Of a stretch of 64,000 bases of DNA, positions 7,530-26,876 are shown one piece after another. Numbering within the stretch: position 1 is the stretch's first letter; each line of letters begins with the position of its first letter. The DNA lies in contig JBDOQK010000002.1 in the NCBI GenBank assembly GCA_040437565.1, forward strand, positions 248,001-312,000, written 5' to 3'. The notes under the pieces were generated by a model that did no database searches, was not told the origin of the DNA, and saw only the letters and a program-made list of their open reading frames with translations. The DNA comes from Albugo candida. Taxonomy: Eukaryota. A program made the position numbers and the translations under genes.

Positions 7530-10500
7530 TTAGAAAAATCTCTTGGAACTTGGAGCTTGGATCTTGTCACTTTTTTGATTTCCATTATATAGCGGTTTGT
7601 TCCACGATCCCAATCCGACATGAGAACCACTCTTGACACTAAGAGGAACACGACTGCTTCCTGATTTCTCAAGCAGTGGCTTCCTTACGCGTAATGCTTC
7701 ATTTCCAACTTTCTTTTCTTCCTTGACATAATTCTCTTTTCCAGAAATTGAAATGGTATCCCGATGTCGTTTCTCTTGCTGATTTGAAGTCAGAGACGCG
7801 ACTAGTGCTTCATGCTCTTCATCCATAATATTTTTTCTTTTCTGAAGTCGAAGCTTCATCTCAGGACGATTATGACATTTGAGAGCATGACACGAGCAGT
7901 CATTTCCGCAGTCTTGTTTATTTGCGCGACATGCACACAATTTTGTCGCACACTTTCCATTGCACTGACAGCAGTCAGGTTTGGACTCGGAGCCATGCAG
8001 TAAAAGCCGATCGATCTCTTCCATGCTGTCTCTGGGACCAGCCGATGCTTTTTCGAGACACGTGACTGAATCAGCTCGAGAGTTCTTCTCAATACGCTTC
8101 CGATGCTTCACCTCTCTCTTTTGCTCTTCACCTTCAACATAATCAGAGTCGTCACCACTCGATATTTCTGATAGCGAGTCTTCGAGCCCGTCGTCACTGA
8201 GAATTTCATACGTTTTTGCTTTCTGCGGTCCTTTTGTCGATTTCTTCAATTCCGATTGAGACTCTTTTACTTCGTTCGCTTGCATCGTCTCGTTACTGGG
8301 AGCTATCGTCTTGGTATGTGCATGATCACGGAGATGGTCAAGATCTTCCAAAGCTTGAACGAGTCTTTCTTCCGTCTCACGTAGATCTTCCTTACACGAC
8401 TTCAGCTCACGATTCGTAGCTTTACCACCGATTGCTTCTTCCATAAGAGATTTGATGATAAAATGACACATTTGTTCTTTCGCAGGGAACAGTTCATCGG
8501 GAATTGGGTTGTGTTTTTCCACAGTAGCGACTTTGGCTTGTAGCGTTCGTATGAGTTCATTCTTCTCGCGAAGAAGACGCTTCCATGTTTCGAGAGACTT
8601 CAAATCCTCAGTGCTTGCACATCCCGATTTCTCGACTCGCGCTATTTTCAAGGCCAGTTCCTTCCGTTCGTCCTGATAAGTCCGAATAGCATTGAGTGCT
8701 CCCAGCAGAGTGATTTGTACGTCGAGGGTTTCATGAACTAGGCTACTTACCGATAGGGGAACTGGGGACGCCATCGCTTCAGAGGCTGAACGAAGTGCGA
8801 GTTTCGAAGTGGATAATGCGCTTTTGGACTTCTCTAAAGTCGAAGACGTGTGCATCATGCGCATTCGCTTATTGGCAGCAGCAACTTCTTCAGTCTTCCG
8901 TTTCAAAACAGTATTCTGCTTAGCATGCAGTTCCGACAATTTCTGTAATTCGTACTGCTTTCGCTCTTCCTGACGTTTTAGACGAAGTATCTGCAGTTGT
9001 TGCTGGCGATTTTCTTTCCGATGACGTTCGGATTCTTCCTTCGATTGACGCTGTAAATTCGCCTTTTGTTTTTTCATCGAAGATACTTCGTTCTCTAATG
9101 TTGTGATTTTCAATGTACCATTCTTGAGCTGTAAAGTGAGTCTTTTGCACTCCCGTTCGGCACCACGGGCAATGCCAACTTGCTGCTGAAGACTTTTCAG
9201 CTGTTCGTGTAATCTTGAGGAGCTCATGGTCGAGTTGGCTTTACTACGAATGGCTGTTGCAAGTTTCTTTTTATCTTTCGTAAGCGCATCTATCTCTTCC
9301 TCCAGTTGAATGATCTTCTGCGAGTAAGATGATGTCAAAGCGAGTAATTTGGCCTCCAATGGTTCGTCCGCAACATGCTTCTCCTCACTTGTATTGGTCA
9401 AAGTAGAATGACTCAGTAACTCCAGTATCTTCTCCCGCTCTGTTATTTCTTGCGACAACAAGTGTAAATCTGATTGTAACTTTTGCGTCGACCCGTCAGT
9501 TATTTCATCGGAGCCAGCTTCTGTCTCCTTTATAATAGTAAGACTCGGCAGCGTTAGTTCGAATTCCATCGCTTCTTCCATTAATTTTGATTTGTCGGAT
9601 GCTTGGGTGGTGTCTTCCGCGGAGGATAGCTCTTGAGCAGCGCGTTTCCACTTCTCTTTGGCAGCCTCAAGAATACGTAGCTCTTCATCTTTTATTAGCA
9701 GTAATTCGTTCAGCCTTTTGACTTGTTCGGAATTGAAGATGGAGCCAATTTCAGGATGCGAGAGCTCCGACGTCGATATTCCGGCGGAACTAAAGCTGGA
9801 CTTTTGTTGTTGCAGTAATTGGAGCTGTAATAGTTCCACCTGCATACGTAAGCTCACAATCTCATTCGATGGATTTATTTCACAGTTTGCAACAGCTTGA
9901 TTTTGGATCTTTCGTGCACGAGCCGCGTACCTAAGCGTGCTGGATATCTCATCATAATTCACGTCTGCAGGGCTCACACAAGCAATCATAAGTGTTTTGC
10001 TGTTTCCACCAAGACTATCTTGCAGCAGTCGAGTAAGCTTGGAGTCACGATACGGAACATGTACCATCGACACTGAGCCATTCGCGGCATTCTCCTGTGC
10101 GTGGGAACTTCGCTCACGTTCACATAGAGCATTTATAACGTTGCCCAGAGCCAAAAGTCCTTTATTGATATTAACACCTTCTTTGAACCGCAAACCTTCA
10201 GCGTTGGTGCGTTTTGCACGTTCAGAGCCTGCTAAATCGACCAGATGGAATTTTGAGTATCGATTTTCCACATTACCAGTTTCATCATCTTTATAGCACT
10301 GTTCCATTGTGAGTGTACAGATAGCATGAGATCGACTGGAGGTGGCATTCATACTGGTGGAAGCAGTCTTGCGGTTTAATGTACCACATTGTAAGAACTC
10401 TGCCACTTGTTCGAGTGACTCCACTGTGTGTTCCGACAATCCCGGGATACAAATACCTCTTTTCCCATCATCACGAATGGAAAGATTCGTACTAGTAGAC

Positions 10501-11727
10501 ACTACCAGTAAATCGTGTATCTCTTCGTTCAGTACTTCCAAGTACGAGATCNNNNNNNNNNNNNNNNNNNNNNNNNNNNNNNNNNNNNNNNNNNNNNNNN
10601 NNNNNNNNNNNNNNNNNNNNNNNNNNNNNNNNNNNNNNNNNNNNNNNNNNNATGAGATCGACTGGAGGTGGCATTCATACTGGTGGAAGCAGTCTTGCGG
10701 TTTAATGTACCACATTGTAAGAACTCTGCCACTTGTTCGAGTGACTCCACTGTGTGTTCCGACAATCCCGGGATACAAATACCTCTTTTCCCATCATCAC
10801 GAATGGAAAGATTCGTACTAGTAGACACTACCAGTAAATCGTGTATCTCTTCGTTCAGTACTTCCAAGTACGAGATCTTCAGTGAGACATCTCCACTCGT
10901 TTGCCGCATCCGATCGAATATCTATCACATCGCTTGTCAATTCACAGATGAATTTGACTCCAGAAAACACTCACATCTTCCATACAGCGAGGAATAATTC
11001 CACGGTTTTGAGGTTTCAGACTCAGTTTGAATTCATTTCCCATTGTGTACCTATCGCAATGCGTTATGAGAATTTTTGTTCAATTAATTTATCAATACAT
11101 ACGTCTTGCCCGAGCCTGTCTGTCCATATGCAAAAACAGTCGCATTGTATCCATCAAAGAAGCGATCGAGCAGAGGAGGAATCAGTTGCGTGTAGATGTC
11201 CTCCTGGNNNNNNNNNNNNNNNNNNNNNNNNNNNNNNNNNNNNNNNNNNNNNNNNNNNNNNNNNNNNNNNNNNNNNNNNNNNNNNNNNNNNNNNNNNNNN
11301 NNNNNNNCAGCGAGGAATAATTCCACGGTTTTGAGGTTTCAGACTCAGTTTGAATTCATTTCCCATTGTGTACCTATCGCAATGCGTTATGAGAATTTTT
11401 GTTCAATCAATTTATCAATACATACGTCTTGCCCGAGCCTGTCTGTCCATACGCAAAAACAGTCGCATTGTATCCATCAAAGAAGCGATCGAGTAGAGGA
11501 GGAATCAGTTGCGTGTAGATGTCCTCCTGGCTGCTCTCAGGTGGATACACAGCGTCGAAATCAAATTCTTTATCTTGCTGTAAGCCGACTCGAATACGAG
11601 TGCTTTGTAATTGAAGACAATTCTCATTCGCATGCGCGATTTCGGTGCTGCTCAAAGGTCGGACGCGCACAGCGACTTTCACTGCGCTTTCAGAGAATCT
11701 TTGATTTTGCACACATCTTTCCGCCAT
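7530..11727 (-). CDS. KIF4: Kinesin-4 (KIF4/chromokinesin-like) with C-terminal CXC domain; interrupted by introns, gaps and duplicated flanks
   Basis: [36 protein letters not shown] and [20 protein letters not shown] motifs, long coiled coil, and [39 protein letters not shown] at 11727. Confidence 0.93.
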
Positions 11728-11889
11728 TTCGTAAGGAAAAGTGCTGCCACTACGCGGGNNNNNNNNNNNNNNNNNNNNNNNNNNNNNNNNNNNNNNNNNN
11801 NNNNNNNNNNNNNNNNNNNNNNNNNNNNNNNNNNNNNNNNNNNNNNNNNNNNNNNNNNCTATCCTTAACGTTGCACGTGAAGAAGGCAT

Positions 11890-14084
11890 TTAAATCGATT
11901 GAATTATCGTTTTTATCTCTTGCGGAGCGCGCAAATCTCTCAGAAATTCTAATGTAATGCTTCCTTCGTCGTGTTGTGCTGTCGCACTCAAATGGTTGTA
12001 AAGAGTTGTGTACAAATTCTCTAATTGTTGCGCGATGAGTGATCGAATTTCCTCGCGTGTTTCTGGTTGAGCGATTCGACTGAGATGAGAGAACGATAAA
12101 AGAATCAAATTTGAAGGAAAATCTCTCATGAAGCGCGAAAATAAATCGTAATGCTCGCAGCTTTTTGGTCGCATTTCTTCACCCAACAATGATCTTAATT
12201 CCCAACGATCCAAATACGCGTTAAATGCAATCACAGAGAGCTTTGTTTTCCAAGTATCTACGTCTTCATCCAAGAGAGTGTTCCATTTGGAGGCGGCATT
12301 GAAGCATTTCAGCTGCACCTGAAGACACTGGAAATTGTTGAGTTGTAGAATCAGAGCGTCAATTGGAGTCATCTCATCAACAAGTCGAGCGGAATACTTC
12401 TTTACTGCAGCCGAAATAGCATCCAGGATTAATGTAATGGCTTTGTGACATTCTTCGTTGGCGTTTGGAGACGCCTCTAAGACTTTTAAGATATTGGCAA
12501 GCGTGTGTGATGTGTCGACTATGATAGCTGTTGCTGCCAAATTGGGCGAGTACTCCCGACCGGATGATCCAATTACTGCCACCCAGGATTGTGTTTGTGA
12601 TTCCAAAAGGCTGAAAGCTTGACTTTGACATGTCGATATCGCCGAAACAATAGTACCGTCAGATATAAGATGTGTCATCTTTTCTTGGTAGTGAGAGAAG
12701 AGATGTATCAACTTGAAAGTTGTAAGAATACTGTGGCTGGCAGAGATGCACTGCTCGACAAGTGTATGCAGTGGCCGAGCAATGACATCCAGTGCTCTCT
12801 CAACGAGGTTCACACTCTTCGTCTGTACATTCCTCTCGTTCTCCACGTTGGCCAGCTCATAATTGCATTTGTCATTTGTTGAATCCTCGCTTCGCATCGC
12901 AGCTTGAATGTTGATGTCTTCTTCAAAAATGGAATTGAAAAAATCTTCCTCAGTTACCAACGCTTGATGTGTCCACGCCAGCAAATTGCCACAATAACGA
13001 ATGATCTCTTGCGCTTGCATTCCAATAGGTCGAAAAAATTCACCAGATTTCCTGCAGGTATGCATTTCGAAGAATCGTTCGGTAAGCATGGATTGACGTG
13101 CCGATGCTATAGTTTCTTTGCAATAGCTGTACATGAGAGAATTGCTCAACGTGACCAGAGCACATTGTTCAATGTATAGCGACGCACTTGTAGAAGTCTG
13201 GTCTATCTCTAAGCAATTTTATGGCACGACGTAGCTGACAGCTTGCATCCTCCTCAATTCGTACACACCTTCTGCCAACCCATCGACAGAGTCGTTCGAA
13301 ACCCGCTTCTTGATATTTTGATATACTCTCCATTACTTCCACACTAGGCGCACAAATTGTTTGATGGAAGAACACAAATCGAATTGGGCGGAGGTACCTC
13401 AGATTGGGGTTTTCAGACGCAATGAGATCTTTGCAGCCTTCTTTCATCTGCTGCACTCGCTCCATTACACGAAAAAAATCGTCACTGACCTCCACTGTTT
13501 TTTCTTCGCTGCGAAGTATTTGAATTTCTTCTTCACTGAGCTGATACCGGTGGAGGAATTCTCGAAGTTGTGTCAATTCATGCTCCACACTTTCCCTACA
13601 AACAATTCCAATTATGTAACGCTATCAGCTGACAATCTCTTTACTTTTCATAACGAAGTCGATTCGCTTCGACTAGGGCATCTCCAGTGCTCTTTTTCGT
13701 CTCAGTCAGATACGACTTCATAGCAGTGCATTGAGAATGCAAGTTATCCACACTGGCACTCAGAGTACGTATTTCATGCAGCGAGATCTTTAGCTGACTC
13801 AGAACGGATTTGGCGCATTCGAGTTGCTTTTTCTCCAATGTCGCGCGCAAAGTTGTTCGTAATTCTACCAAAGGATCTGCCGAGGTGCTAAAGTACGACG
13901 CGTCATGATCGCATGACGAGAAATGCTTTTTTGATATATTATTTGATACTGATTCTGCTATCAAGCCTTCCTTTATTATGGTGTCCAGTAGGGATTTCGC
14001 TGACTCGATTTCTGGCCGCGATTGTAAAAGTTTGTGCACCCGAAGCCGCACTGCATCGCGATCATTTTCCGGGCTCAATGACAT
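11890..14084 (-). CDS. COG6: Conserved oligomeric Golgi complex subunit 6 (multi-exon)
   Basis: ORFs 13641-14123, 13169-13588 and 11890-13149 are joined by short introns. RPIGMQAQEIIRYCGNLLAWTHQA and FLHRYQLSEEEIQIL match COG6 signatures. Confidence 0.85.
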
Positions 14085-14119
14085 GTACTTTTGGTTATGT
14101 TCGGTGAATAATGACAGTA

Positions 14120-15070
14120 TCACAATGTAAGAGAATTGCGAAGTGCGAATGCGATGCCCTGTAATGATGGCAGGGATTTACTTGCTGCCAAACGTTTCTC
14201 TGCACAATGTCTGGATTTAGAATTGGGCGTTCTCTTTCTTTTGATGCTGTTAATTGACTTTTTTGAAGGCTCAACCCGAAGATAAATAAGACCAAATGAA
14301 AACCCTTTTTTATTTGGACGGAGCGGACAGATTTCTGGCGCAAGCGGATGCTCCCACGAAATATTTTTTGATTTTGAGGAATGAAAGCAATACGATGAGA
14401 AATCCACTGATGTATTATGAATTTCTGTCCAGCAACTTGGACAAAAGACCTGGAAACAGTATGCACACCACAATTCCGCCTCGATAATGGTGCAATTTCC
14501 GCATACTAGTACTCTTTCCTCTGAATGGTCCTTTTCAGAATCAATCAAGAGGGGTGGCTTTGCTGATTGCCTCTCCCGCTTATCTTGCTCTTTAATCGTT
14601 CTGCAAGTACTCGGAGCTTCTCCGACCAAATGAAGCGACTCAATAGAAGATTTCGTACAAGCCTTTTGTTTTATTTGTGAGTCCCTGTTGAATTCTCGCG
14701 AAGCGTTATGTCGTCTTAGGCTCTCAAATCGAGTATTCTTCAATCCATCCATAGAGCGATTATTGCACAGAGCTGATCCAGGCTTCTCAACTGACTGAGA
14801 TGGTTTACCAGCATTTCTCGATCGTGCTCTACTTACGAACCCTTGATGAATCACGAGAGGCTTGTCACGTCCACAAAAAGTGTATTGCGCATTTTTCGAA
14901 TGGAGCTCTCGATCACCTTCTGCCTCAGCACTTCTCTTTTCAAAAAGCTGCATACGCGAGGAATTCACCTCACTAAGCACTCGAAAGCGATCACTACGCA
15001 GTGCCGCCACGAATTCCTGCTTCTCACGAAACTTAGAGTCGCATGTCAATGTTTGCTCATAACCGCTCAT
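14120..15070 (-). CDS. B-box zinc-finger-containing protein
   Basis: CGNCTIIEAELWCAYCFQVFCPSCWTEIH. First ATG at 15070. Confidence 0.7.
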   Translation of the reverse strand: MSGYEQTLTCDSKFREKQEFVAALRSDRFRVLSEVNSSRMQLFEKRSAEAEGDRELHSKNAQYTFCGRDKPLVIHQGFVSRARSRNAGKPSQSVEKPGSALCNNRSMDGLKNTRFESLRRHNASREFNRDSQIKQKACTKSSIESLHLVGEAPSTCRTIKEQDKRERQSAKPPLLIDSEKDHSEERVLVCGNCTIIEAELWCAYCFQVFCPSCWTEIHNTSVDFSSYCFHSSKSKNISWEHPLAPEICPLRPNKKGFSFGLIYLRVEPSKKSINSIKRKRTPNSKSRHCAEKRLAASKSLPSLQGIAFALRNSLTL

Positions 15071-15161
15071 GGGAGCATACAAAATGGATCATCATATGTG
15101 TACGACTTTCAAGTGTGACGAGCAAGCTCAATAAATCTCACATCTATTTTGAGCTACCTAA

Positions 15162-16358
15162 CTACGTATGCTCCCTATGACATTGCATACACAAAAACAG
15201 ACAAGCGGATTTCTTTCCGAACTCGCATGGAGCCGCTATCTTCTTACTAGCTAGCCACCAATCGATTAGATAGGCTTTGAATTTAGCAAGCAACGCGTCA
15301 TACATCGTCTTTGATTGCAAGTAAAAGCATTTCCATATTTTTGACCGTTCGTCATAGAGAACACATTCGCTAGATTCCGTTTGAAGTGAGCTGAGAAAAT
15401 GTATCCACTCCATCATGTTTGCTTCTCGAAAATTTTCCTCGTTGAACAAGTCGAGAAACAAGGAAACAATTTCTCCCACTATGTGATATGGGAACCCAAG
15501 TTGAGAGGATATATCCGAGTGAATCGCAAGAAGTTTTGATGGGCTGAGCTCAATTTGCTGCCTCAAATGCTCAAAAGTACTGTTTGGTGGCAGTGCGTAC
15601 GATGATAAGATCTTTCCCAGATGTGCAGTAATATGACGAAAGACAGTAACGGTAGCTGTCCAGATAAAAGGTGTTGATTCCTTGGAGAAGTGAGGTTCAG
15701 ATATTTCCATCTTTTTTACGTCAAAACCTGTATATGGTTCGGGTTTATATGCATTGCCCATTCGGATCACATGTGCGTTGGGATCAACAAGACCATGAAG
15801 TTCTGTATTCGACTTGAGGAATCTGGATCGAATGACACGCTTGCCTGATAAGGATCGCCCGCATGGGCTTTCTGTCAACGGGCGACGCTGAAGTAAGCCT
15901 CGAAACGGCTCTCGCGATGACGTCGTGAACTCCCGTAGCTTGCGCTTATGTGCGTTATCCAATGGACAAGTTGGTGCAACAAGCTGACATTTAGAGATAG
16001 TTCGCTTCAAGGAGCATTGTGCTTTCCACTGACTAGAAGCGTTTTCCGTAAAGGTATCAGTGCGATTGCGTCGTGGTTCTACAACTAGTGTCGAGCGAAC
16101 TTGAGCCATGTCGTCGTCCGCTGAAAGCGCGGTCGCCTTACACACAAAGTGTTTGATTTCTGTAAACTGATTTTCGAAGTGACTGAGTAGAGAATTTTTC
16201 AAAGCAAGTCGCTTTATTCGATTATACTTTCTCTGTTGAATGCGAATAGGAATTGATGTGTATGAGATACTTTGATAAAATAAGATCATGCGATTGCAGA
16301 TGAGGTGGTTTGGATGTCCATATCCACGTTGCGCTACTTGATAGAAATAATATATCAC
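15162..16358 (-). CDS. Hypothetical protein with a C-terminal Cys/His (B-box-like) segment; both ends uncertain
   Basis: 398-codon ORF ending CEFGKKSACLFLCMQCHREH. Additional 5' exons up to ~17100 are possible. Confidence 0.55.
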   Translation of the reverse strand: MIYYFYQVAQRGYGHPNHLICNRMILFYQSISYTSIPIRIQQRKYNRIKRLALKNSLLSHFENQFTEIKHFVCKATALSADDDMAQVRSTLVVEPRRNRTDTFTENASSQWKAQCSLKRTISKCQLVAPTCPLDNAHKRKLREFTTSSREPFRGLLQRRPLTESPCGRSLSGKRVIRSRFLKSNTELHGLVDPNAHVIRMGNAYKPEPYTGFDVKKMEISEPHFSKESTPFIWTATVTVFRHITAHLGKILSSYALPPNSTFEHLRQQIELSPSKLLAIHSDISSQLGFPYHIVGEIVSLFLDLFNEENFREANMMEWIHFLSSLQTESSECVLYDERSKIWKCFYLQSKTMYDALLAKFKAYLIDWWLASKKIAAPCEFGKKSACLFLCMQCHREHT

Positions 16359-17592
16359 AAGATATTAGCTGTTACGAGCGTTAGGCAGTTACAGCTTTGA
16401 ATGAAGAATTACATAATTTCCATTCTTTGTACGTATTCCATGATTTCTTTCTTATTTTCAAACTTTAATGGCTTCCATGCGATGCCGTCGTATCTATTTA
16501 TAAAAGCACGAGAGGTTTATTGTGTTGCCATGTTGGTACAAAATGAGTTGGATGGAGTCAAACGGTCAAAACAACAAATACAGAAACTTGTACAGCTGTC
16601 AACAATAAATATTACAATTTAGCCACGCACAATGGCATTTTCTTTTCAAAAAGGAGCTTACGAGCTGAACAGATCGTTAGGAACCCCTCTATGTTATATA
16701 GAGCTTCTAGATTCACAAGAATGTCAGGTTCGAAATTCAATCAATTTGGTTGAATGTTATAGAAATATAATAAAGTAGCGTTGTTCGACGACCAGATTGA
16801 GTAAGCAATAAAACATACTGTATCGTGCAGCTGAATTCTTGTCTCAAATTTTGATGATGTTTGATCACGCCATCAATTAGACCTGCGCGTAAGACTGATG
16901 GTGCCTCTAATGTAAACTCTTCAAAGAGCATGCTACTCGATAGTTTTAGTGACATTACCAAACACATTGTATAAAAAGCATCAGGCCCACCCAAAGTACA
17001 TTCAAGACGCAAAGACAACAATATAATCGGGGGGTTCTAAGCCAAGCAACACCGTGGGTGGGCGATGATTGTAGCATTTCTTCTATATAAAAAAGAGTGT
17101 TGTTCTCAGACATGCGTCATCGCAAAACATGGAGTGCATTCTGAATGTATTATTCTATTTCACGCTCAATTATAGTAAGAGAACACCGCCGAACTGCAAA
17201 GAAAGTTTAGTATTGCAGAATCGATTTACTGAAGCTCGCCTTCCTCGCAATTTATCTTAATTGGAATTACTATAGATTTATTTTAGTTGGAAACGTAAAA
17301 GCCCGGTCAAACTATCGCATTTATGAGCAATGTCGAAAGCCGGCATCTCATCCCAAGCGCACAATAATCAAGTGCACTAAAGGTAAAAGACGTACCCATG
17401 CTGCGGCTTTTCTGTCACCGACTGTACTGATATAAATGAGTTCGACTTGGTACGTAGAGTCTCAGACTGATTGCGCGTGATGTGCACGACGAATGCACGA
17501 GGAATTCCATTAGTAATCATGTCACCAAATTGAGGGGAGGATGACCTGTTGTTTTCGATTTACCAAGTGGATAAGACTGAAGGTCCATAGAA

Positions 17593-18940
17593 ATGCTTCT
17601 CGCTGATTCCAAATCAACACAAAGTAACCCGTCCATGGAGACAATGCCGCCTGCCTACAGCCTCTCTTTCCTGATGAATCACGATATCACCAGTGCGATT
17701 GGTGACAAAACGGAACATCTCGCTTCACCACCATCGATTGTCGAAAACTCGGTCGCGTGTAAACTCATTCCTGAACGAACACTGCGTAATCATCCATCCA
17801 CAATTTCTCCTAATGCTCGTACACCTTCGGAAAAACGCCGCTGCCTTAATCACTCTCGAGTCAACGTGTGGAATCACATCACTAGTGATAATGGAAGAAC
17901 GACTTCCGATTCACATTTTCCAAAACCACATCGATTTCCGCGCTCACGCTGTTCATTACGAAAACGCACGACGCGATATCTTAGTGAAGAAGACCGTCGC
18001 GATATCATTCGCCGAATTCGCAATGGCGAACTACAATGTGTACTCGCGAAGGAATATTCTGTCAGTCGTGCAGCTGTCTGCAATCTGTACAAAAAATGTA
18101 AAAATATGTTTCTGGATGACTTAGGGTCAAGCTGTGGTAGCTCAGCGTATCATCACTCACCTCTCCATGGATCCAATTTTCAGCTGGGTCTAAAATTTGA
18201 TCATTTGAACAAGAATTTGCATCAAACACTGAACATTGGGTACTCCGAGTTATTATCGGGTCCAAAAATATATCAAATGGCGCAGCACTCGCGTCCAATC
18301 CGTAATTTGTTGGATGCGACTAAGAATGATGCAATGGATGAAGCCACTTTCCGCCATGACATAGATCGATTAGCTACCCTGCTGATCGAAGAAGCGCTTG
18401 CTATGGTACCAAAATGCACGTATAGTCATCCATTAGTGAACAAAGCACCTGCCTCCAAAGTGTGTGGACTATCGATCGGCGAAAATAGTGGCGCAATTTT
18501 CTCACGCACAATGAATACAGTTTACCCGGCCGCGCAGACGGGCAAAGTATTGTGGTGGAAACATGCCAATGGTGATAAGCCATTCGCACAAAGCAAGAAT
18601 GTACTGTGTACTCTAAAGGACATTCGTGATTCAACGTGCTTCTTATTTGCAATGAGCTGCGATGATGGGGAGGATTTGTATATCGCTGTCAATCATCTCA
18701 TTCACGACCTCCATATCTCTCCATCGGATATTCACATTGTCGTCATCCACAGCTCGGCATCAGGTGCGGAGCGTTTACTTGCAGCATTTCCAGGTACACC
18801 ACTTTTTTATTTCACATCCGTTTGATTGATTATTAACGCTTCTTTGTACAGATGTTACACTCATTTGCGGTGCCATCGATTCTGACTTGGACGACGGCAA
18901 TCAATCCAATAGCTACTTGAGCAGATACTGGGGGCATTAA
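17593..18940 (+). CDS. psq/CENP-B-type HTH fused to a degenerate uracil phosphoribosyltransferase-like domain
   Basis: HTH: YLSEEDRRDIIRRIRNGELQCVLAKEYSVSRAAVCNLYK. UPRT-like: FRHDIDRLATLLIEEAL...VCGLSI...AAFPDVTLICGAIDSDLD. Intron 18794-18851; stop at 18940. Confidence 0.8.
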
Positions 18941-19226
18941 ATTGTAATAAATACTTGTGAATTATTTGCTAGTAAATCAATATCGATAATTCGCTACAAA
19001 GTCGAGTAGTATCCTGAGATTCCAGTGCTTTTGCTTGTCGATACCAAGCCATAATATTAAAATGTACACTATAATTTAAGTATAAATTGATCTTCTGCAA
19101 AGAGGCAAAGCGCATCAAAAGGCGTTTCCGGTACTATAAGCGAGTCCTCGGGGCTTTCATTACTCAACCATTTTTAAAGCTTTCAAGTATGGGTTGTTTT
19201 TTCAGCATTGGCACACACAGTATGAG

Positions 19227-20356
19227 ATGACGCAACCTTTGCTTGAAACAAAGTCAAACCAAAGCAGCAATCGTTTTACATTTCGTACGAAAAAGGAGCT
19301 CATACAACATTGGAAAATGGAATACCGTATCGCACTCAAGGAATGGCAAATTATACTTCTTTTTCTTCTTGTGCAATGTGGGTCCAAACGAGAAGTTGCT
19401 GACGTCTTGCCATCTCACGCGCACTGTTGGTAGATGCTGTGTTTATAGCAGCCAATTTTACAATCTTTACTCAGGTCAATACGCTACGGAGGGAACAACA
19501 TGCAATCCTGCATGACATTGGTCTCCCTGCACTGTCGAAGGGAACGGTATTCGCGTGGATGCACGATATTCTATGTATACTCATCGTGATTGCGACGATA
19601 TTGTGGCTGGTTCTCAGTACATGCGTCCGAATGGAACAACCTCTTTTTCTTGTGATCGTTTTGAAAAGAATTTTGATGCACTGGAGCATCGTGTTAGTAC
19701 GTGAATTCTTTCTATATTGGAGTCAACTTGACAACGTCTGTCGTAGTCTCTGTGCGTGATTTCCTCATTGATCACAACATTTCCTACTCCCGATCAGCAA
19801 TGTCACCTCGAGCTGTATTCTGAATGCTCAGGCTCTAATCGCGAGGCTTGCTTAAAGTGGCAGAAAGGTACGTGAAGGTTCACCTGAACTCTGAGCAAGT
19901 CGTAAGATTTTGTTGTATCACAAAGCGATGCAGTCACCCGATATACCACAAATTCTCTATCGCTTCGATATGCATAATAGCTGTCAGTTTCTCACCTTTG
20001 AAAGGGATGCTGTATTCACGTTCGGATTGATGCTGGCGGTCATAAAATATGCTTCACTGGGCCATGTGTTGCCCACTGTGATAGTAATGGGTGTTGAGGT
20101 GATCTTAACGTCTCTGAGCATAGCGTCACGTAAAGCATACTCTGTGAATGCATTCACGACATTATACGTCGTTCCGATGGTTTGGTTTGTGCTGGATGCT
20201 TATGTGAACGATATCAATTCCAAGGACACTATGACGACACCCGAAGTACTGAATAGAATTTACGGGATCACTGAAAACGGAGAGCTTACCTCGACATCGC
20301 TCTCTTCAGACGGGGGGATTGATCAGATGGAAAAGGGTGCCCACTCACCCGCGTAG
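19227..20356 (+). CDS. Inositol-phosphorylceramide/sphingomyelin synthase family membrane protein with catalytic residues substituted (multi-exon)
   Basis: LHDIG, TTFPTPDQQC, SCQFLTFERD and IASRKAYSVNAFTTLYVVPMVWF align with the IPCS D1-D4 motifs. Several transmembrane segments and short introns. Confidence 0.75.
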
Positions 20357-20797
20357 TAAGTTTAGAGCCGCATAAGATGCTAATAATTGAATTGTAGCGA
20401 GGCAACTTTTATGTATCTTAATGAAAAGATTTGAGAATCGTTCGCTGATGAGTGATGTTGCGCGTATAGTAAAAAGATGACGACTGCCGTCGTATGAGAT
20501 AGGAGCACACAGAACACAGAGACTCTATCAATTAAAGTTGACCATTATTACGATGCCACTTTGTTCCTTCTGGTAGCGGGTTTCTCCGTTCCATTTCTGA
20601 TAGAGTGAATCGGTATAATCGTCAGAAAATGTCAGTGTGCGTTTCGCACGCCTGAAACGAGTGGAACCACAACGAATCAACACATCTTGCCACTCCATTC
20701 GAGATTAGATCGCATTGTTGTTTAAAAGCACGATATGAGTGGGAAATTAGCATAATTGGGTACGAAGCCTAGGAATCCATCGATGTTGTTTGTCGCA

Positions 20798-21721
20798 TTA
20801 GGTGGATGACACCTCATTCAACGAAATCTCAATTAGGACGGGGTAGTGGATATCCGGTTTATATGCATCTTTGTATTTTTCGGTGTATTCAGCATCAAGC
20901 TTGGAGATGAATGGATCGTAATCAGTCCGTACAGAAACGGAAAGGCCAACTTGACACGCAATCTCGACAAAGCTATCCATTGATTTCCCGCGTTTTGGCT
21001 GAAGGAGTATGCATAGACCAGTGTCGGGTCGAAGTAGACTACGGATCAGTTGTGCGAGATCTGCGTGGAAGGAACGAAAGAATAAGCAATCGCTGGCGAT
21101 AATCAAGTCAAAACTGCCTCTTTTTGACGTATCTAGGCTGCATTCCGCGTGATTCCACAAAACTTGACGAACATGAGCATCGACATCGCATTTGAAATGC
21201 TCAACATTTTTCTCGAGACATTGCTGCACATTTTCCAGCGCTTTTTCGTTCCCATCTGTGATCCAAAATGTACCAAAAGGGACGGGCGCATGAGCCAGTA
21301 GCCCAAAAGAAGCAAATGCACTCATTCCGCTTCCAAGTTCACATACATTGAGCGACTCACTGCTCCTTGTAATCGATTGACAAACTCGATTCGATAGTAT
21401 AAAGTAGAGCAGCACTTGTTCTGAAGACCACATTTTAATATTTCCAGTGTTGTCAACGCCTTTATTCTCCCGGTGACATACTAAATCTTGCAATGCCAAA
21501 TGCAGCTCACATTTCTCACGAATCAGCACGGAAGGACTATTGCCATGCAGCGGTATCGTATACTGTTTCCATCGCCATCCATCAATTGCCTTCTCTGCAG
21601 CAGCGGTCGATGGGAATAATTGAAAAAATTCAGGTGTTGAAGGGATTTTCGTGTGGTTCGATTCATGCCGCTTACAAATTGCTTGACGTAATGTCAGCCA
21701 ATGACGCTGAGAATCTTTCAT
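20798..21721 (-). CDS. CAMKMT: Calmodulin-lysine N-methyltransferase-like
   Basis: VDNTGNIKMWSSEQVL, VCELGSGM, ITDGN and FDLIIASDCLFF motifs; single exon, 307 aa. Confidence 0.85.
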   Translation of the reverse strand: MKDSQRHWLTLRQAICKRHESNHTKIPSTPEFFQLFPSTAAAEKAIDGWRWKQYTIPLHGNSPSVLIREKCELHLALQDLVCHRENKGVDNTGNIKMWSSEQVLLYFILSNRVCQSITRSSESLNVCELGSGMSAFASFGLLAHAPVPFGTFWITDGNEKALENVQQCLEKNVEHFKCDVDAHVRQVLWNHAECSLDTSKRGSFDLIIASDCLFFRSFHADLAQLIRSLLRPDTGLCILLQPKRGKSMDSFVEIACQVGLSVSVRTDYDPFISKLDAEYTEKYKDAYKPDIHYPVLIEISLNEVSST

Positions 21722-21917
21722 AAATGGAATTTAGGACGCTTCTCTGATAATCAAGTTCAAGATGAGAAAGAAATTCGATGTTTTGTCTACATGAGTCAGC
21801 TTCCTTCACTTGATGGTATGCTCTATTTCGAGTATCACAGTTCCATCTCCAAATTCATGAATCGAACGTGATACTGGACCGAGTAATTTTAGCTCATTTG
21901 GGAAGCAGGCTAATCGT

Positions 21918-22977
21918 ATGCGATTCGCGGTGATTGGAGACGCGTTTGTGGATGTGGTGGCTGGGGCTTTGAGTCCAACTCAGGGTCTACCGACATGGGG
22001 AACGGATGTTGAATGTCATTGTCCTATTCAGCCGCATCCAGGAGGCTCCGCCCTCAATACCGCAACACATCTATCAGCGCTATCACGTGGAAAATCCGAG
22101 TTTCTAGTCGATTTACACACGGTTGTGGGCGATGATTTCTTTGGAAAAATTATTCATGAGCATTTGGAACTGAATCAGATCTCATTGCAATCTCCTTGTC
22201 TTCCGGAGCTGAAGACTGGAGTCTGCATTGTGTTGAGTTCCCCCGTACGATAATTGTCTTCGATATTCGCATACTAACAAATGCTGCGTTAGAGTGACCG
22301 GGGATTTGTTACTTATTATGGAGCCATGCGGAAATTCTCATTGCGGCATATAGACCGAGTGCGAGTATTGGATGCGAATCATCTACATATTGGAGGTATC
22401 ATTCATTGATTCTGCATAAGTGATTGCATTACTGAGTATGGTATTGCTTGCAGGCTACTATAGTTGCCCGCAGCTTCATTCAGAAATTCTTCCGCTGCTG
22501 AAAGCTGCAAAGGAAAAAGGGATCACGGTCTCCTTGGACACGAATTATGACACTTCAGATAAATGGGATGGTGGATTGACGCATATACTCAGCTTTGTCG
22601 ATGTCTTTCTTCCAAATGAGACGGAAGCCAGACGAATCAGCCGACGAGAAACGATACAGGAAGCCTTCACGTTTTTCGAGCAATTTGTTGATGGCTTGAT
22701 CGTAATAAAGATGGGAAAGCATGGCGTCAGAGCGAGGTGCACCCGAACCAAGTGCACGTGGTTTCAGCCGACAATAAAAGTAGAAGTACAAGATGTCACA
22801 GGAGCCGGTGATTCTTTCAATGCAGGATTTCTATATCAGTGGAAGCAACACCCACAAGATGTTAAAAATGCACTGCTTTGGGGCTCTGCAGTAGCTTCAC
22901 GCTGTGTTGCTGAGATTGGAGCTTCTACTTGCAAGTATGCCTACGAGGACATTATGAAAATAACATCTCTTGATTGA
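21918..22977 (+). CDS. PfkB family carbohydrate kinase (3 exons)
   Basis: PGGSALNTA, VDVFLPNETE and DVTGAGDSFNAGF signatures, with two short introns near 22245 and 22395. Confidence 0.9.
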
Positions 22978-23066
22978 ATGCTTTCTGTGAAAACCTGACA
23001 GTTTCCGTTCGATTTTTAATCAGTTCAAAAGTCGACAGGATCCTTGCTCCATCATTAAATTGCTTC

Positions 23067-24308
23067 ATGCTGACGTAAGAGAGAGCTTGTCGAATTTGTA
23101 ATGAATTACACCGAGTAATCGCTACCGAGATACGTCACTATTGTGCACCACCATCATCGTTTCCAGCTATTTTTGAGTTTGCCGAAGATGCTGATGAGCG
23201 CACTATCAAAGCTGACGACAGCACTGGAAGACGATTGAGTTTGACTTTGGAGATGATCAAAGAACTTGACGCGCTATACGTATACAGGAAGGAGCTATCC
23301 ACTGCAATTTCAAAAGCGACACACGATCGCAATAGTGGATCCGATTCGCAATCACAATGCCTAACATTGCCGCAGATAGTTATAATGGATACTATAGAAA
23401 TTTTGAATAACCTCCGATCAACATCATTCTCACATTTGAATGTTTCCAGCATGCATTGCGTGGCCAAGTCATTTCACACATTACATGCACCGACAAGTAA
23501 GAGCTTCGATTTTTGACTTGATTGCGTCTGCTTCTATATAATGCACAATTGCAGTACGACCATAACATTGTACCTTCCTAAACTCCAATGATCGATTTAT
23601 TTCGAGATTTCGCGATTCTTTAATACGTACATAGCGAATGTGTACGTATGGTCATCGCAATTTTTAATATCATTTCATCACAAAGTTGTTTCTGACCAAT
23701 CCATTCTGTTTTGAGCTTCCTAGACCTGGACCATTCACGTCTGCGCGTGTGTCTATCGCTTCTTAATGGCTTGCATGCATATAAAGAGGAGTGGTATGCT
23801 TTAGCGAGCCATTATCTATTTTCCGTTACAGACAGCACACTCACGATAATACATGCGCCGTTGCTTTCGTCCGTTCTTGTAATCTCCTCAGCCTCCTCAG
23901 GCCATGCACTTTGTAGTAGAGCCAATCATGCCATTTCAAATGCTGATTCCCGATGATACGCTAAACTAAAAAGGGCTGTCTATTAGAGTGCTCAGTAGAC
24001 ATGATAAACCTCGCAGGTATGAATGGATTTCAGATTACCATCAAGTGATTAATCGTGTAATTCCACATGACCCAAATTTCATCATTGGCGGTGAGCCCAA
24101 GATTTCCTCCGTCTATAGCAGCATTGTGTATTGCTTGATGAAACACTTGCTTCTCGGAGCTTTCTGTTTACGTATATCTACCTACACGTAGCAGATAAAA
24201 AAGGACTCAAAGGAGCGCCGTTCTCTTAGACGCGAAGTCGCGGCGAATTCGTTGGCAAGTTTCATCCAAAGGTTATGCAACAGCTTCCAAGATCTCAATA
24301 TAGTGTAG
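23067..24308 (+). CDS. Intron-rich hypothetical protein; exon structure unresolved
   Basis: Chain of short + ORFs (23235-23516, 23711-23956, 23988-24191) with GT..AG boundaries. No recognisable domain. Confidence 0.35.
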
Positions 24309-25610
24309 TGCTTTGTAGACTCATGCATAGACCAGCCGTGTATCGAACTTTACAATAATTCCATTTTCTTCACTGCCGGAGTATCGAATTCATTTGCATT
24401 GAATAAAGACGAGTCTCATCTTTAAGGTTCGGACATCGTGATGGTAATATCGAGAAAGCTGATTAGACTTCTATTTCTCAAGATACGGTAGATCTCCTAC
24501 TAAAAAGCGATGGAGAAGGTGCACTTCTTTACACCAACTCACCGGTATGAGATGTGACTCACACAGCCTTTCTGCTGTATTCGCTCAGAGGAAATACTCA
24601 TATAACCCAAAGCAGATAAAGTACGCCATGGAATGATCGCTAAAAATTTAAAGACACCCTCATATTGGCAAACAAACAGCGAACACTTTGCGCAGTATGA
24701 TAAAAGGCCATGCGATAGAATTCGACATGATTGGTCGCGAAATTTGATCCATGTCAGTTAATGNNNNNNNNNNNNNNNNNNNNNNNNNNNNNNNNNNNNN
24801 NNNNNNNNNNNNNNNNNNNNNNNNNNNNNNNNNNNNNNNNNNNNNNNNNNNNNNNNNNNNNNNTTCGCTCAGAGGAAATACTCATATAACCCAAAGCAGA
24901 AAAAGTACGCCATGGAATGATCTCTAAAAATTTAAAGACACCCTCATATTGGCAAACAAACAGCGAACACTTTGCGCAGTATCATAAAAGGCCATGCGAT
25001 AGAATTCGACATGATTGGTCGCGAAATTTGATCCATGTCAGTTAATGAAGAAGGAGCAAAATGAATCTCGTGCTCAAGGGAAGTGCGTGGCGATTACTCT
25101 GAATGAAACACGACACATTTCAGAATTACGGCGGCACTTGAAGTCGTTGATATAGCGCATCGTGTCACTCTTGATACATCATCAAAGAGTGTACCCAAAG
25201 CGATTATATCAGCGTTACAATGGAGGGAATTGTGTATTGAATAGCTAAAGTACACCTAACATGAGAGTGCGCATTAATTGGTCTGACTTTTAAAGGCATC
25301 AAAATGTGCATAGAGTAAGGCCAACAATTCAAATAGATTGATTACACCGCTCGATCGTGCATCGTGGGGCGTCTTTATCACCACAAGATTATCTCAAATT
25401 CAGNNNNNNNNNNNNNNNNNNNNNNNNNNNNNNNNNNNNNNNNNNNNNNNNNNNNNNNNNNNNNNNNNNNNNNNNNNNNNNNNNNNNNNNNNNNNNNNNN
25501 NNNTCTTTATCACCACAAGATTATCTCAAATTCAGATGCTAGCCACATCTTATCGTTAAATTATAAAACACGACTGTTGTCCAGTCAGAAATTGTGGTCG
25601 CTACTAGAAA

Positions 25611-26876
25611 ATGGATGTCACAAGCGGAGACTCGTCTGCTACTCCAGGCTTGAACGTGATCTTAGACCCTTCAGAATATTTGACTTTCCACTTACAGCCC
25701 AGTGCATCCCCTCAGTCTAAACTGAGCATTCGCAATACGTCTGCAGATCGTATCATAGCATTCAAAGTTAAGACCACACGACCTTTACGATATCTAGTAC
25801 GACCGAATCAGGGAATGCTGCAACCGGACGGATCCGCCTCTATCGTCGTGAGTCTACAGCAAAAGGATTGCGAAGAGCTCTTACGTCTGGAACCCTCTGA
25901 GAGGCAAACGCTCAATGACAAATTCCTCGTACAGAGCATTTATATTGAAAATTCATTTTACGAATCCGTTCGCGCCAGAGGCTCCAAAGAGACTGCAGAT
26001 GTATTGACACAAATGTGGTTGCATACGAATAAAGCCAAATTGTCGAATAAGAAACTGAGATGTCGATTTGTTCAAGAACCGATAGAAAATAATGGAAGTA
26101 AAATGCAAATAGAGACACAGCCGATACCCTCACACGTATCGATAGGAAGTCGAGATGGATCGATATCTCCAAGGTCAGGCCTGAGCACATCACACCTGCA
26201 ATCGAGCTTTCGTGAAAGTAATACCGATACAAGTGAGAGACGAGAAATTAAGGAGCACGACCTGGCCACTAAGGTAAGGATGCACGCATGTCATGAAGAT
26301 GGCTCGGCTGATTACTCGTTTATTGTAGACTTCTGTACAGGAAGTAGCTAGTCTGCGGAAGAAGTACGATGAGGTAATAATCGTCAAACCTGGTCTGGTC
26401 ACAAAGTGAAAAATCTCACTATCCGACGCTCTATATGGTAGCTTGTGGCATTTACTGTCCAACTGACAGCACAAAGGGACGTGCTTTTATCGGATCTGGA
26501 GAAAACATATCCTTATTCAGCGTCAATTACTGCTATATATCTCATTTGCCACTTTTTGTTTCCTTAACATCACTCTTCATTTACTCGGCAGCATTTACAA
26601 CGAGCAACCACAGATGTTCAACGATTCAAGAAACTGGCAGAGGAAGGGCAATCAATTTCTTCGTTACGCAATCGCAAAGCAGGCCAAACTAGCAATCCGA
26701 ATACACCGGAGGAAGTTCCATCGACCGGAAAACTCAACAGCATACGGGATTCAACGGTGAGTGAATGTTCCACTCCAAGCTCATTGTTGACATTTACGCT
26801 TTGCCTCCAGGCGTTTGGACTCTTTCATATTTTGATTTGCGCGATTCTCTTTTTTCTGATCGGGCGATATTACTAG
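25611..26876 (+). CDS. VAP: VAMP-associated protein (MSP domain, coiled coil, C-terminal TM), multi-exon
   Basis: IAFKVKTTRPLRYLVRPNQG and DKFLVQS motifs. Final exon AFGLFHILICAILFFLIGRYY*. 3' exons are duplicated at 27467-27705 across a gap. Confidence 0.9.

Follow-up and report, generated by a model that had tools for sequence, protein, structure and literature searches.

A helix-turn-helix protein of Albugo candida with a degenerate uracil phosphoribosyltransferase domain, and its relatives in oomycetes

In this work we have analysed a stretch of 64,000 nucleotides from Albugo candida, an oomycete which causes white rust on crucifers (contig JBDOQK010000002.1 of assembly GCA_040437565.1, positions 248,001 to 312,000 of the forward strand). 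We call this whole stretch the window and count all positions from its first letter. Our subject is a single gene on its plus strand whose product joins a helix-turn-helix (HTH) to a domain resembling uracil phosphoribosyltransferase (UPRT). A first-pass annotation of the window had proposed this fusion as a candidate nucleotide-sensing transcription factor comparable to the bacterial regulators PurR and PyrR. In our judgement the gene product is probably a dimeric, sequence-specific DNA-binding regulator in which a UPRT that is no longer an enzyme acts as the pairing module. The DNA-reading head would consist of a basic arm and a three-helix HTH resembling those of the Pipsqueak (psq) and CENP-B proteins, and a disordered linker of about 50 residues would tether it to the UPRT-fold domain. 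This domain would have descended from a eukaryotic-type UPRT with loss of the residues for phosphoribosyl pyrophosphate (PRPP), pyrophosphate, uracil and catalysis, and the subunit interface which it has retained would pair two HTHs on dyad or palindromic sites. We infer that the protein binds DNA, dimerises in the cell, is located in the nucleus and has a regulatory role.

The gene, its family and the UPRT-like domain

The stop-to-stop open reading frame (ORF) on the plus strand runs from 17581 to 18825 with its first ATG at 17593, and a GT splice donor lies directly 3' of ...AAFPG, at the point where the frame departs from the UPRT-like alignment. The spliced coding sequence has 1290 nt and gives a product of 429 amino acids (aa), whose sole difference from the deposited A. 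candida protein CCI42813.1 (P0014 in our set) is I370V. In database searches the product matches best an A. candida protein, with an identity that rounds to 100%, whose cluster contains the four deposited isoforms CCI42813-42816 of 429, 415, 412 and 402 aa. The annotated starts of the shorter ones lie at 17635 (M15), 17644 (M18) and 17674 (M28), and the start of the A. laibachii orthologue P0002 aligns near M18 of the A. candida protein. A contig of 2425 nt (depth 346) from the public sequencing run X1, which we guess to be an RNA run, maps to 17300-18790 and 18849-19100, spanning the whole coding sequence. Its joint drops 58 nt bounded by GT..AG (cut +3), exactly the predicted intron, and against the window it has a single synonymous C>T at 18642. 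Because the intron is so precisely missing, we take the contig to be a transcript which has the HTH and the UPRT-like domain on one molecule. The continuous frame and this intron-less contig bear out the earlier proposal of one ORF and one transcript for both domains, and speak against the possibility that the two lie on separate transcripts. At its ends the same contig goes beyond the mapped parts, by about 405 nt on the upstream side of 17300 and by about 277 nt past 19100 (regions ~16895-17592 and 18941-~19377). Either the 5' leader is thus about 700 nt long and the 3' untranslated region about 440 nt, or overlapping transcripts were co-assembled. Runs X4, X5 and X6 gave only pieces of 165-318 nt which fall short of the intron and are uninformative on expression.

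Is the fusion peculiar to this one gene? A HMMER search run exhaustively over 1.84 billion representatives (taken at the 50% identity level) returned 224 proteins at E<=1e-3; of these, 39 lie at E<=1e-10 and two at E<=1e-30. An alignment-based search over 8000 candidates gave at least seven proteins. We assembled a set of 163 proteins, counting six additional A. candida copies and an oddity of 54 aa, and scored it with domain hidden Markov models built iteratively from the same set; by this measure the HTH and the UPRT-like domain are both present in 142 of the 163, the HTH always first. The HTH stands alone in 19 proteins of 112-352 aa, most of which are probably fragments since they are so short; one protein has the UPRT-like domain alone and one has neither. 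Among the 99 members scanned with Pfam, UPRTase was found in every one and no other non-HTH family in any. All members with a species name are oomycetes, from the genera Albugo, Phytophthora, Pythium, Globisporangium, Lagenidium and Nothophytophthora. On present evidence the family is apparently confined to this group, though unnamed members from metagenomes and Logan could stem from elsewhere. An architecture search across oomycetes had been suggested with the first-pass annotation, on the reasoning that orthologues lacking the fusion would speak against it; we find that orthologues and paralogues alike keep it. In the ESM Atlas at least 13 look-alike clusters have at least 50 members, and Oomycota is the commonest phylum in all of them. 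Plain UPRT of about 232 aa forms a separate ESM Atlas cluster of 127 members, again with Oomycota as the commonest phylum, and the fusion family thus exists beside the true enzyme in oomycetes. A search for shorter proteins with the UPRT-like part of P0116 gave five unnamed family fragments and no canonical UPRT. Among the 19 proteins with the HTH alone, P0156 stands out by its three copies of the HTH and could be of another kind.

By sequence and by predicted structure the second domain falls in the UPRT fold. Against the Pfam family UPRTase (PF14681, curated cut-off 27) exon 1 alone scores 27.4 bits and the full protein 46.1 bits (E 5.2e-12, residues 236-416). The rise shows that exon 2 completes the domain, in keeping with the earlier proposal that a spliced last exon finishes it. 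AlphaFold2, given 108 family sequences as input, yielded a model with a mean predicted local distance difference test score (pLDDT) of 71.5, in which an alpha/beta domain at residues 225-429 lies mostly above 90. Comparison of this predicted domain with known structures by Foldseek, again a check proposed at the outset, gave the Toxoplasma gondii UPRT (1jls_C, E 9.4e-14, template modelling (TM) score 0.74) and Candida albicans Fur1p (7rh8, TM score 0.80). When the family profile was run against the PDB it matched 12 UPRTs, with T. gondii UPRT (1bd3, E 5.7e-43) ahead of Fur1p (7rh8, 1.1e-31) and of the bacterial UPRTs (2.1e-22 and weaker); the sole non-UPRT was the ancestral PyrR 4p80, at E 0.0095. 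A match of this strength, together with an architecture repeated in 142 of 163 proteins, excludes chance likeness. Since the eukaryotic UPRTs outscore the bacterial ones, we regard the domain as a descendant of a eukaryotic-type UPRT, which fits the claim that the protein arose independently of bacterial PurR and PyrR.

In a working UPRT the RAG loop contacts pyrophosphate, the PRPP loop ribose-5-phosphate and the uracil loop uracil. We compared these loops with the canonical enzyme through HMMER alignments to T. gondii UPRT from the PDB rather than through an oomycete UPRT. At the RAG loop the Albugo protein reads SIGENSGA and T. gondii UPRT SIVR-AGES. At the PRPP loop it reads FLFAMSCDDGED, a string identical in the A. 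laibachii orthologue, against MLLDPMCATAGS (core LLDPMCATAGS) in T. gondii, so that Asp has become Ala and T-A-G-S has become D-G-E-D. The uracil loop, aligned through the relative P0003 with its reading RIRPGIGDFTQRFW, is (Q)SNSYLSRY in Albugo and (P)GIGDFxxRF/Y in the aligned sequences (canonically PG(I/L)GDFGDRY), and the final R-Y alone is kept. Alignments to T. gondii UPRT and to the relatives agree with the first-pass annotation that all three loops have been replaced. By these motifs the domain of the Albugo protein is a pseudoenzyme, and classical binding of PRPP, uridine monophosphate (UMP) or uracil by this copy seems unlikely.

The loss is not equally deep everywhere in the family. 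In the alignment of 108 members, the best-aligned column for the RAG arginine has R in three rows and lacks it in the other 105 (Glu in 52, Gly in 21); if two candidate columns are allowed, five rows have the arginine. The column of the PRPP aspartate, Ala in Albugo, has D or E in 68 of the 108, and the phosphate-loop glycine is kept in 71. Among the 98 rows which continue for more than 20 residues past a conserved FP, 16 have the strict uracil loop PG[ILVF]G[DN]F, Albugo not among them, and 24 have a looser form; in eight rows the strict loop occurs together with an acidic PRPP residue. No row has the complete catalytic set, nor is there a strict-loop row among the five with a RAG arginine. 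Phytophthora members of Albugo's own clade retain LD(V/I)QCATG(N/D)E and RIRPGIGDF where Albugo has FAMSCDDGED and SNSYL, and it follows that the Albugo lineage erased the pocket further than these relatives.

The helix-turn-helix head and the predicted dimer

An HTH of psq/CENP-B type had been proposed at about 17975-18100, and the AlphaFold2 model has a three-helix HTH at 17974-18120, with helices at residues 132-143, 148-154 and 159-176 and pLDDT of 90-96. Modelled alone, the HTH (pLDDT 78.9) shows the same three helices. Residues L130, R135, R141, G145, E146, Q148, L151 and R159 are invariant in the 108 sequences. A K/R-x-S/T-R-Y-L stretch is kept in the family at the basic arm, which by its sequence could be either an arm contacting the DNA or a signal for nuclear localisation.

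To which class of HTH does the head belong? Of the Pfam families of psq/CENP-B_N type (PF04218, PF05225), CENP-B_N is matched at E<=0.01 by 37 of the 99 scanned members (best 8e-9), and the other HTH families found among them are HTH_23 (47), HTH_28 (12) and HTH_7 (9). We scored ten named relatives against the CENP-B_N gathering cut-off of 21.2 bits: three exceed it (P0081 with 26.6, P0039 with 22.7 and P0044 with 29.8), P0003 (19.7) and P0017 (19.4) lie slightly under it, P0165 and P0147 are weaker still, and for P0164, P0056 and the A. laibachii orthologue P0002 there is no listed match. UniProt labels two Pythium members 'HTH psq-type domain-containing protein'. In the PDB an HTH-only profile was matched weakly by ArsR (E 0.0018) and by Dan of Drosophila (2elh, whose domain is CENP-B_N/psq; E 0.028). 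The Foldseek neighbours of the HTH-only model, likewise weak, were all DNA-binding HTHs, namely KorA/ArdK, an archaeal factor, Dan (2elh, at rank 11), Tc3 transposase (1u78) and HTHs of LuxR type and of serine recombinases. For the family as a whole 'psq/CENP-B-like' seems a reasonable description of the sequences. The model of the Albugo copy suggests a three-helix HTH of DNA-binding type whose psq/CENP-B subtype is unproven. The label given in the first-pass annotation is therefore upheld by the relatives but not by the protein's own HTH, which stays under every Pfam threshold.

Both domains look constrained in sequence, as the first-pass annotation would lead one to expect. Comparison of the A. 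candida and A. laibachii proteins gives 97% identity for the HTH and 76% for the UPRT-like domain, against 37% (with gaps) for the linker; residues 18-117 of the N-terminal region are 78% identical. We also measured conservation over the 108 members as 1 minus normalised entropy, using columns with <=30% gaps. The HTH has the highest mean of any part of the family (0.741). Within the UPRT-like domain, the 15 positions of a predicted dimer interface average 0.585, the four active-site motifs (35 positions) 0.348 and the rest of the domain (143 positions) 0.390. The interface thus stands out from the rest of the domain (p 0.0015) and from the motifs (p 0.001), and the motifs do not differ from the rest of the domain (p 0.21).

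This interface comes from a homodimer prediction for residues 222-429, which scored 0.64 against 0.29 for the best control. By the tool's own counts, the mark used is passed by 21 of 30 solved homodimers and by 0 of 23 solved monomers. Three runs share at least 61% of their contacts, with partner pLDDT of at least 75, and the predicted interface comprises residues 232-238, 255-271, 310 and 312, with at least 90% conservation of R259, E266 and P312 over the 108 sequences. The pseudo-UPRT had been thought to sense nucleotides or to oligomerise. Oligomerisation gains from the predicted homodimer, whereas sensing of nucleotides or PRPP finds no support in the Albugo copy, where the motifs are lost. 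Since the interface is conserved and the active-site motifs are at background, the domain looks more like a pairing scaffold than like a PRPP sensor of the PurR type.

The HTH also tells the branches of the family apart. In an unrefined FastTree of the 108 members, in which 46 of 105 inner branches are starred, we distinguish at least five clades by their recognition-helix signatures: VSRAAICNLYKNR, GVTRAAICHI(K/N)KNR, VSRAAISNLKQRR, VSRAAICNLNKHR and ISRSAVCNL. The two Albugo orthologues and A. laibachii P0017 lie inside a starred clade of 25 rows (support 97) together with Phytophthora P0003, P0024 and P0032. At 1.31 changes per column the Albugo branch is a long one, and the joining of P0017 is flagged as a possible long-branch artefact. 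Several paralogues occur per species, for instance P0002 and P0017 in A. laibachii and, as a minimum, P0036, P0039 and P0056 in Pythium oligandrum. The A. laibachii paralogue P0017 (394 aa) is 38% identical to our query, reads LDLDCVTGEE at the PRPP loop and has an Arg near the RAG position. In the window, tblastn finds a single locus, and the A. candida counterpart of P0017 is absent from it.

Two further observations concern gene models in the family. Ten of the 108 rows stop at most 20 residues past the conserved FP (the P400 column), P0019, P0021, P0027, P0030, P0034 and P0038 being among the rows noted. Six of the ten have FPG and then a short unrelated tail; P0011, P0015 and P0016 (...FPGTPLFYFTSV), which are A. 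candida calls made without splicing, look alike. We see in this an indication that the relatives have an intron in the same place, where gene callers which do not splice cut them short. The other observation is that P0036 of Pythium oligandrum (616 aa) contains two complete HTH and UPRT-like units in tandem and P0037 (760 aa) two HTHs. These are probably adjacent paralogues fused in the gene models, a hint of tandem duplication. Neighbouring HTH genes of Phytophthora infestans, PITG_00015 and PITG_00016, are mentioned in a study of this oomycete (PMC11267843).

Pairing module, sensor or something else

Seen against canonical eukaryotic UPRTs (T. gondii 1bd3/1upf/1jls; Fur1p 7rh8), the Albugo protein has the fold, the helix DRLxRLLxEEAL and, by prediction, the subunit interface in common with them. 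It differs from them in the replacement of the RAG arginine and of the PRPP, flexible and uracil loops, and in the addition of an HTH and a linker. Plant UKL and animal UCKL1, which are among the ESM Atlas structural neighbours, are also eukaryotic fusions with a domain of the UPRTase family. Their partner, however, is a kinase (PRK) and not a DNA-binding domain, and their business is metabolism and not regulation. With the Pipsqueak and CENP-B proteins, including the CENPB and Psq classes of P. infestans, the protein shares the three-helix HTH, although its own is sub-threshold.

What kind of DNA would such a head read? The P. infestans study (PMC11267843, BMC Genomics 2024) obtained protein-binding microarray motifs with five out of the seven CENPB-class and three out of the four Psq-class HTH proteins; nearly all of these motifs contain TAACA, and the sites GTTAAC and GTTTAAC are palindromic. 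The proteins had been selected by Pfam and InterPro domains, by which members of our family of the GVTRAAICHI type, and orthologues of the P0081 type, would also have been chosen. It is likely, though unconfirmed, that some of the assayed P. infestans proteins belong to the HTH-UPRT family. In the window, GTTWAAC occurs once (48240-48246) against 7.2 expected, a mild depletion, and 100 of 100 shuffles had at least one; the count is uninformative for this protein, whose own site may be a different one.

Several points weigh against a dimeric DNA-binding regulator paired by its pseudo-UPRT, and we set them out together. The HTH of the window protein matches no Pfam HTH model at E<=0.01 (the best is HTH_23, E 0.14), and as a model by itself it has no Foldseek match at E<=1e-3 (best E 0.28); that the Albugo protein binds DNA is something which we infer. 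The dimer prediction may have passed through the model's memory of solved UPRT dimers, in which case it would speak of likeness and not of binding. The interface helix is conserved in active eukaryotic UPRTs too, and hence its conservation does not single out a new role. The family alignment is very gappy (2435 columns for 108 rows), and single motif counts may shift slightly. As for the P. infestans assays, the constructs consisted of the DNA-binding domain +/- 50 residues (PMC11267843), so that the palindromic sites were obtained without any UPRT-like domain, which weakens the link of this domain to dyad binding. Neither phosphoribosyl nor UPRT is mentioned in the text of that paper.

The nearest competitor of the paired regulator is a sensor in the manner of PurR or PyrR, in which the pocket would bind PRPP, UMP, uracil, guanosine triphosphate (GTP) or uridine triphosphate (UTP) and thereby switch DNA binding or the oligomeric state. 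Bacillus subtilis PurR is a PRPP-responsive repressor which consists of a winged HTH and an inactive domain of phosphoribosyltransferase (PRT) fold. The layout of the Albugo protein, with an N-terminal HTH and an inactive C-terminal PRT fold in a predicted dimer, is analogous to it. Solved UPRTs bind GTP and UTP as effectors, and 1jlr (a GTP complex), 3g6w and 7rh8 (with UTP) are among the structural neighbours. Part of the family has kept elements of the pocket, namely the strict uracil loop, in some rows joined by the acidic PRPP residue, and the phosphate-loop glycine. FAMSCDDGED is the same in A. candida and A. laibachii, which hints at constraint on the new loop. Against this, the Albugo phosphate loop has become acidic (DDGED), the PRPP aspartate is Ala, and neither the RAG arginine nor the uracil loop is left. 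The arginine is missing from nearly the whole family, the active-site motifs are conserved no better than the domain background, and the long Albugo branch fits relaxed or shifted constraint. We therefore consider a sensor of this kind rather unlikely for the Albugo copy; its chances are plausibly higher in the clades which have kept the uracil loop.

In any case, the protein is not a PurR in the sense of descent. No PurR was among the PDB matches of the family profile, and past the PRT fold no homology can be detected. The HTH is psq/CENP-B-like and not a winged helix, the lineage is eukaryotic, and the PRPP motif of PurR is destroyed in Albugo (AMSCDDGED). Judged by sequence, the architecture fits a design of PurR type for which a eukaryotic UPRT and a psq/CENP-B-like HTH were brought together independently, and not membership of the PurR family. 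PyrR of Bacillus is an RNA-binding attenuation protein in which the PRT fold itself binds the RNA and some enzyme activity is kept. It resembles our protein in that a UPRT/PRT fold is re-used in gene regulation, and it gave the weak profile match 4p80; the Albugo protein differs in having a separate HTH and in having lost the catalytic motifs.

A bolder version of the sensor can be imagined, to which we would give an equally modest share of belief. Perhaps oomycetes possess a superfamily of transcription factors with many paralogues, peculiar to their lineage and built on a duplicated UPRT, in which the dead enzyme serves as an allosteric metabolite sensor that gates DNA binding and not solely as a dimerisation scaffold. 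The ligand might then be uracil, UMP, UTP, GTP or something new, with the clades tuned differently and the whole convergent with bacterial PurR, again a doubtful proposition. It is just as doubtful, if conceivable, that the acidic DDGED loop gave the Albugo copy a new tuning when the lineage turned to obligate biotrophy.

Could the protein instead be a CENP-B-like one, directed at chromatin, centromeres or transposons and derived from the DNA-binding domain of a domesticated pogo/Tc5 transposase? The HTH class (CENP-B_N, psq) is common to transposase-derived proteins and CENP-B_N is matched by more than a third of the scanned members; Dan (2elh), Tc3 transposase (1u78) and the serine-recombinase HTHs are among the weak structural neighbours of the head. 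We nevertheless find this improbable. No transposase catalytic domain occurs among the members, whose sole non-HTH Pfam family is UPRTase, and the gene, with one copy in the window, lies amid ordinary single-copy housekeeping genes. The CENPB-class motifs of P. infestans, according to PMC11267843, are not enriched at centromeres.

Less probable again is that the pseudoenzyme pairs with the true UPRT or another enzyme of PRT fold and so regulates pyrimidine salvage, with the HTH as an interaction or tethering module. The subunit interface is indeed retained, and a canonical UPRT exists separately in oomycetes. But no part of the protein is better conserved than the HTH, which argues that the head and not the enzyme remnant is the functional end, and many paralogues per genome in at least five clades are more typical of a transcription factor family than of an enzyme regulator. 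That the protein is an active UPRT with an N-terminal extension, as the database name 'Uracil phosphoribosyltransferase' of some relatives would have it, or a gene-model artefact fusing two genes, is hardly credible, since all three substrate-binding motifs are replaced, one continuous ORF and a spliced contig cover both parts, and the same domain order recurs in 142 of 163 proteins.

A literature search, with subscription journals mostly outside it, found no paper describing the HTH-UPRT architecture, which agrees with the earlier claim that no characterised eukaryotic example is known. As far as the literature searched goes, the architecture is seen in automatic database annotation and yet is apparently uncharacterised and often mislabelled as an enzyme; family members are labelled 'uracil phosphoribosyltransferase' or hypothetical protein. 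Recognising a DNA-binding family with a pseudoenzyme would correct such metabolic annotations, as its members would not be salvage enzymes. Oomycetes include major pathogens of crops and fish, and their transcription factor repertoire is poorly understood. A lineage-specific class of regulators would be added for biology that is specific to oomycetes. The family would also offer an example from eukaryotes, and a clean one, of a transcription factor that has taken in an enzyme fold, and dimerisation and ligand sensing can be directly tested in it against each other.

The locus and its neighbours

The features of the gene and of its surroundings are collected in Table 1. The neighbouring genes on either side (7530-16364 and 19895-26351) show no link to pyrimidine metabolism.

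Table 1. Features of the HTH-UPRT gene and neighbouring genes in the window, with the basis of each assignment
Feature	Position	Strand	Basis or remark
Exon 1	17593..18793	+	ATG at 17593; residues 1-400 and first base of codon 401
Intron	18794..18851	+	58 nt, GT..AG, phase 1; absent from the run X1 contig
Exon 2	18852..18940	+	last 29 residues of the UPRT-like domain; TAA at 18938-18940
N-terminal region, residues 1-117 (to about 120)	17593..17943	+	predicted disordered, pLDDT 42-52
Basic arm SRCSLRKRTT, directly before the HTH	17944..17973	+	sequence
Three-helix HTH, residues 128-176 (RYLSEEDRRDIIRRIRNGELQCVLAKEYSVSRAAVCNLYKK...)	17974..18120	+	AlphaFold2 model
Disordered linker, residues 177-224 (178-221 in the AlphaFold2 model)	18121..18264	+	pLDDT 41-53
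UPRT-fold domain, residues 225-429, split by the intron	18265..18937	+	Pfam UPRTase; Foldseek; family profile
Helix FRHDIDRLATLLIEEALA, residues 255-271	18355..18405	+	core of the predicted homodimer interface
RAG-loop remnant SIGENSG	18472..18492	+	aligned with T. gondii UPRT
PRPP-loop remnant FLFAMSCDDGED	18640..18675	+	aligned with T. gondii UPRT
Uracil-loop remnant NQSNSYLSRY	18899..18928	+	aligned with P0003; family profile against T. gondii UPRT
Kinesin with KIF21A-like domain	7530-10793	-	Pfam
COG6 C-terminus	11890-13218	-	Pfam
ORF without Pfam match	15162-16364	-	Pfam scan
ORF without Pfam match	19895-20356	+	Pfam scan
Lysine methyltransferase, Methyltransf_16	20798-21730	-	Pfam
MSP-domain protein	25608-26351	+	Pfam

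The window as a whole contains 2000 N and has a G+C content of 41.5%.

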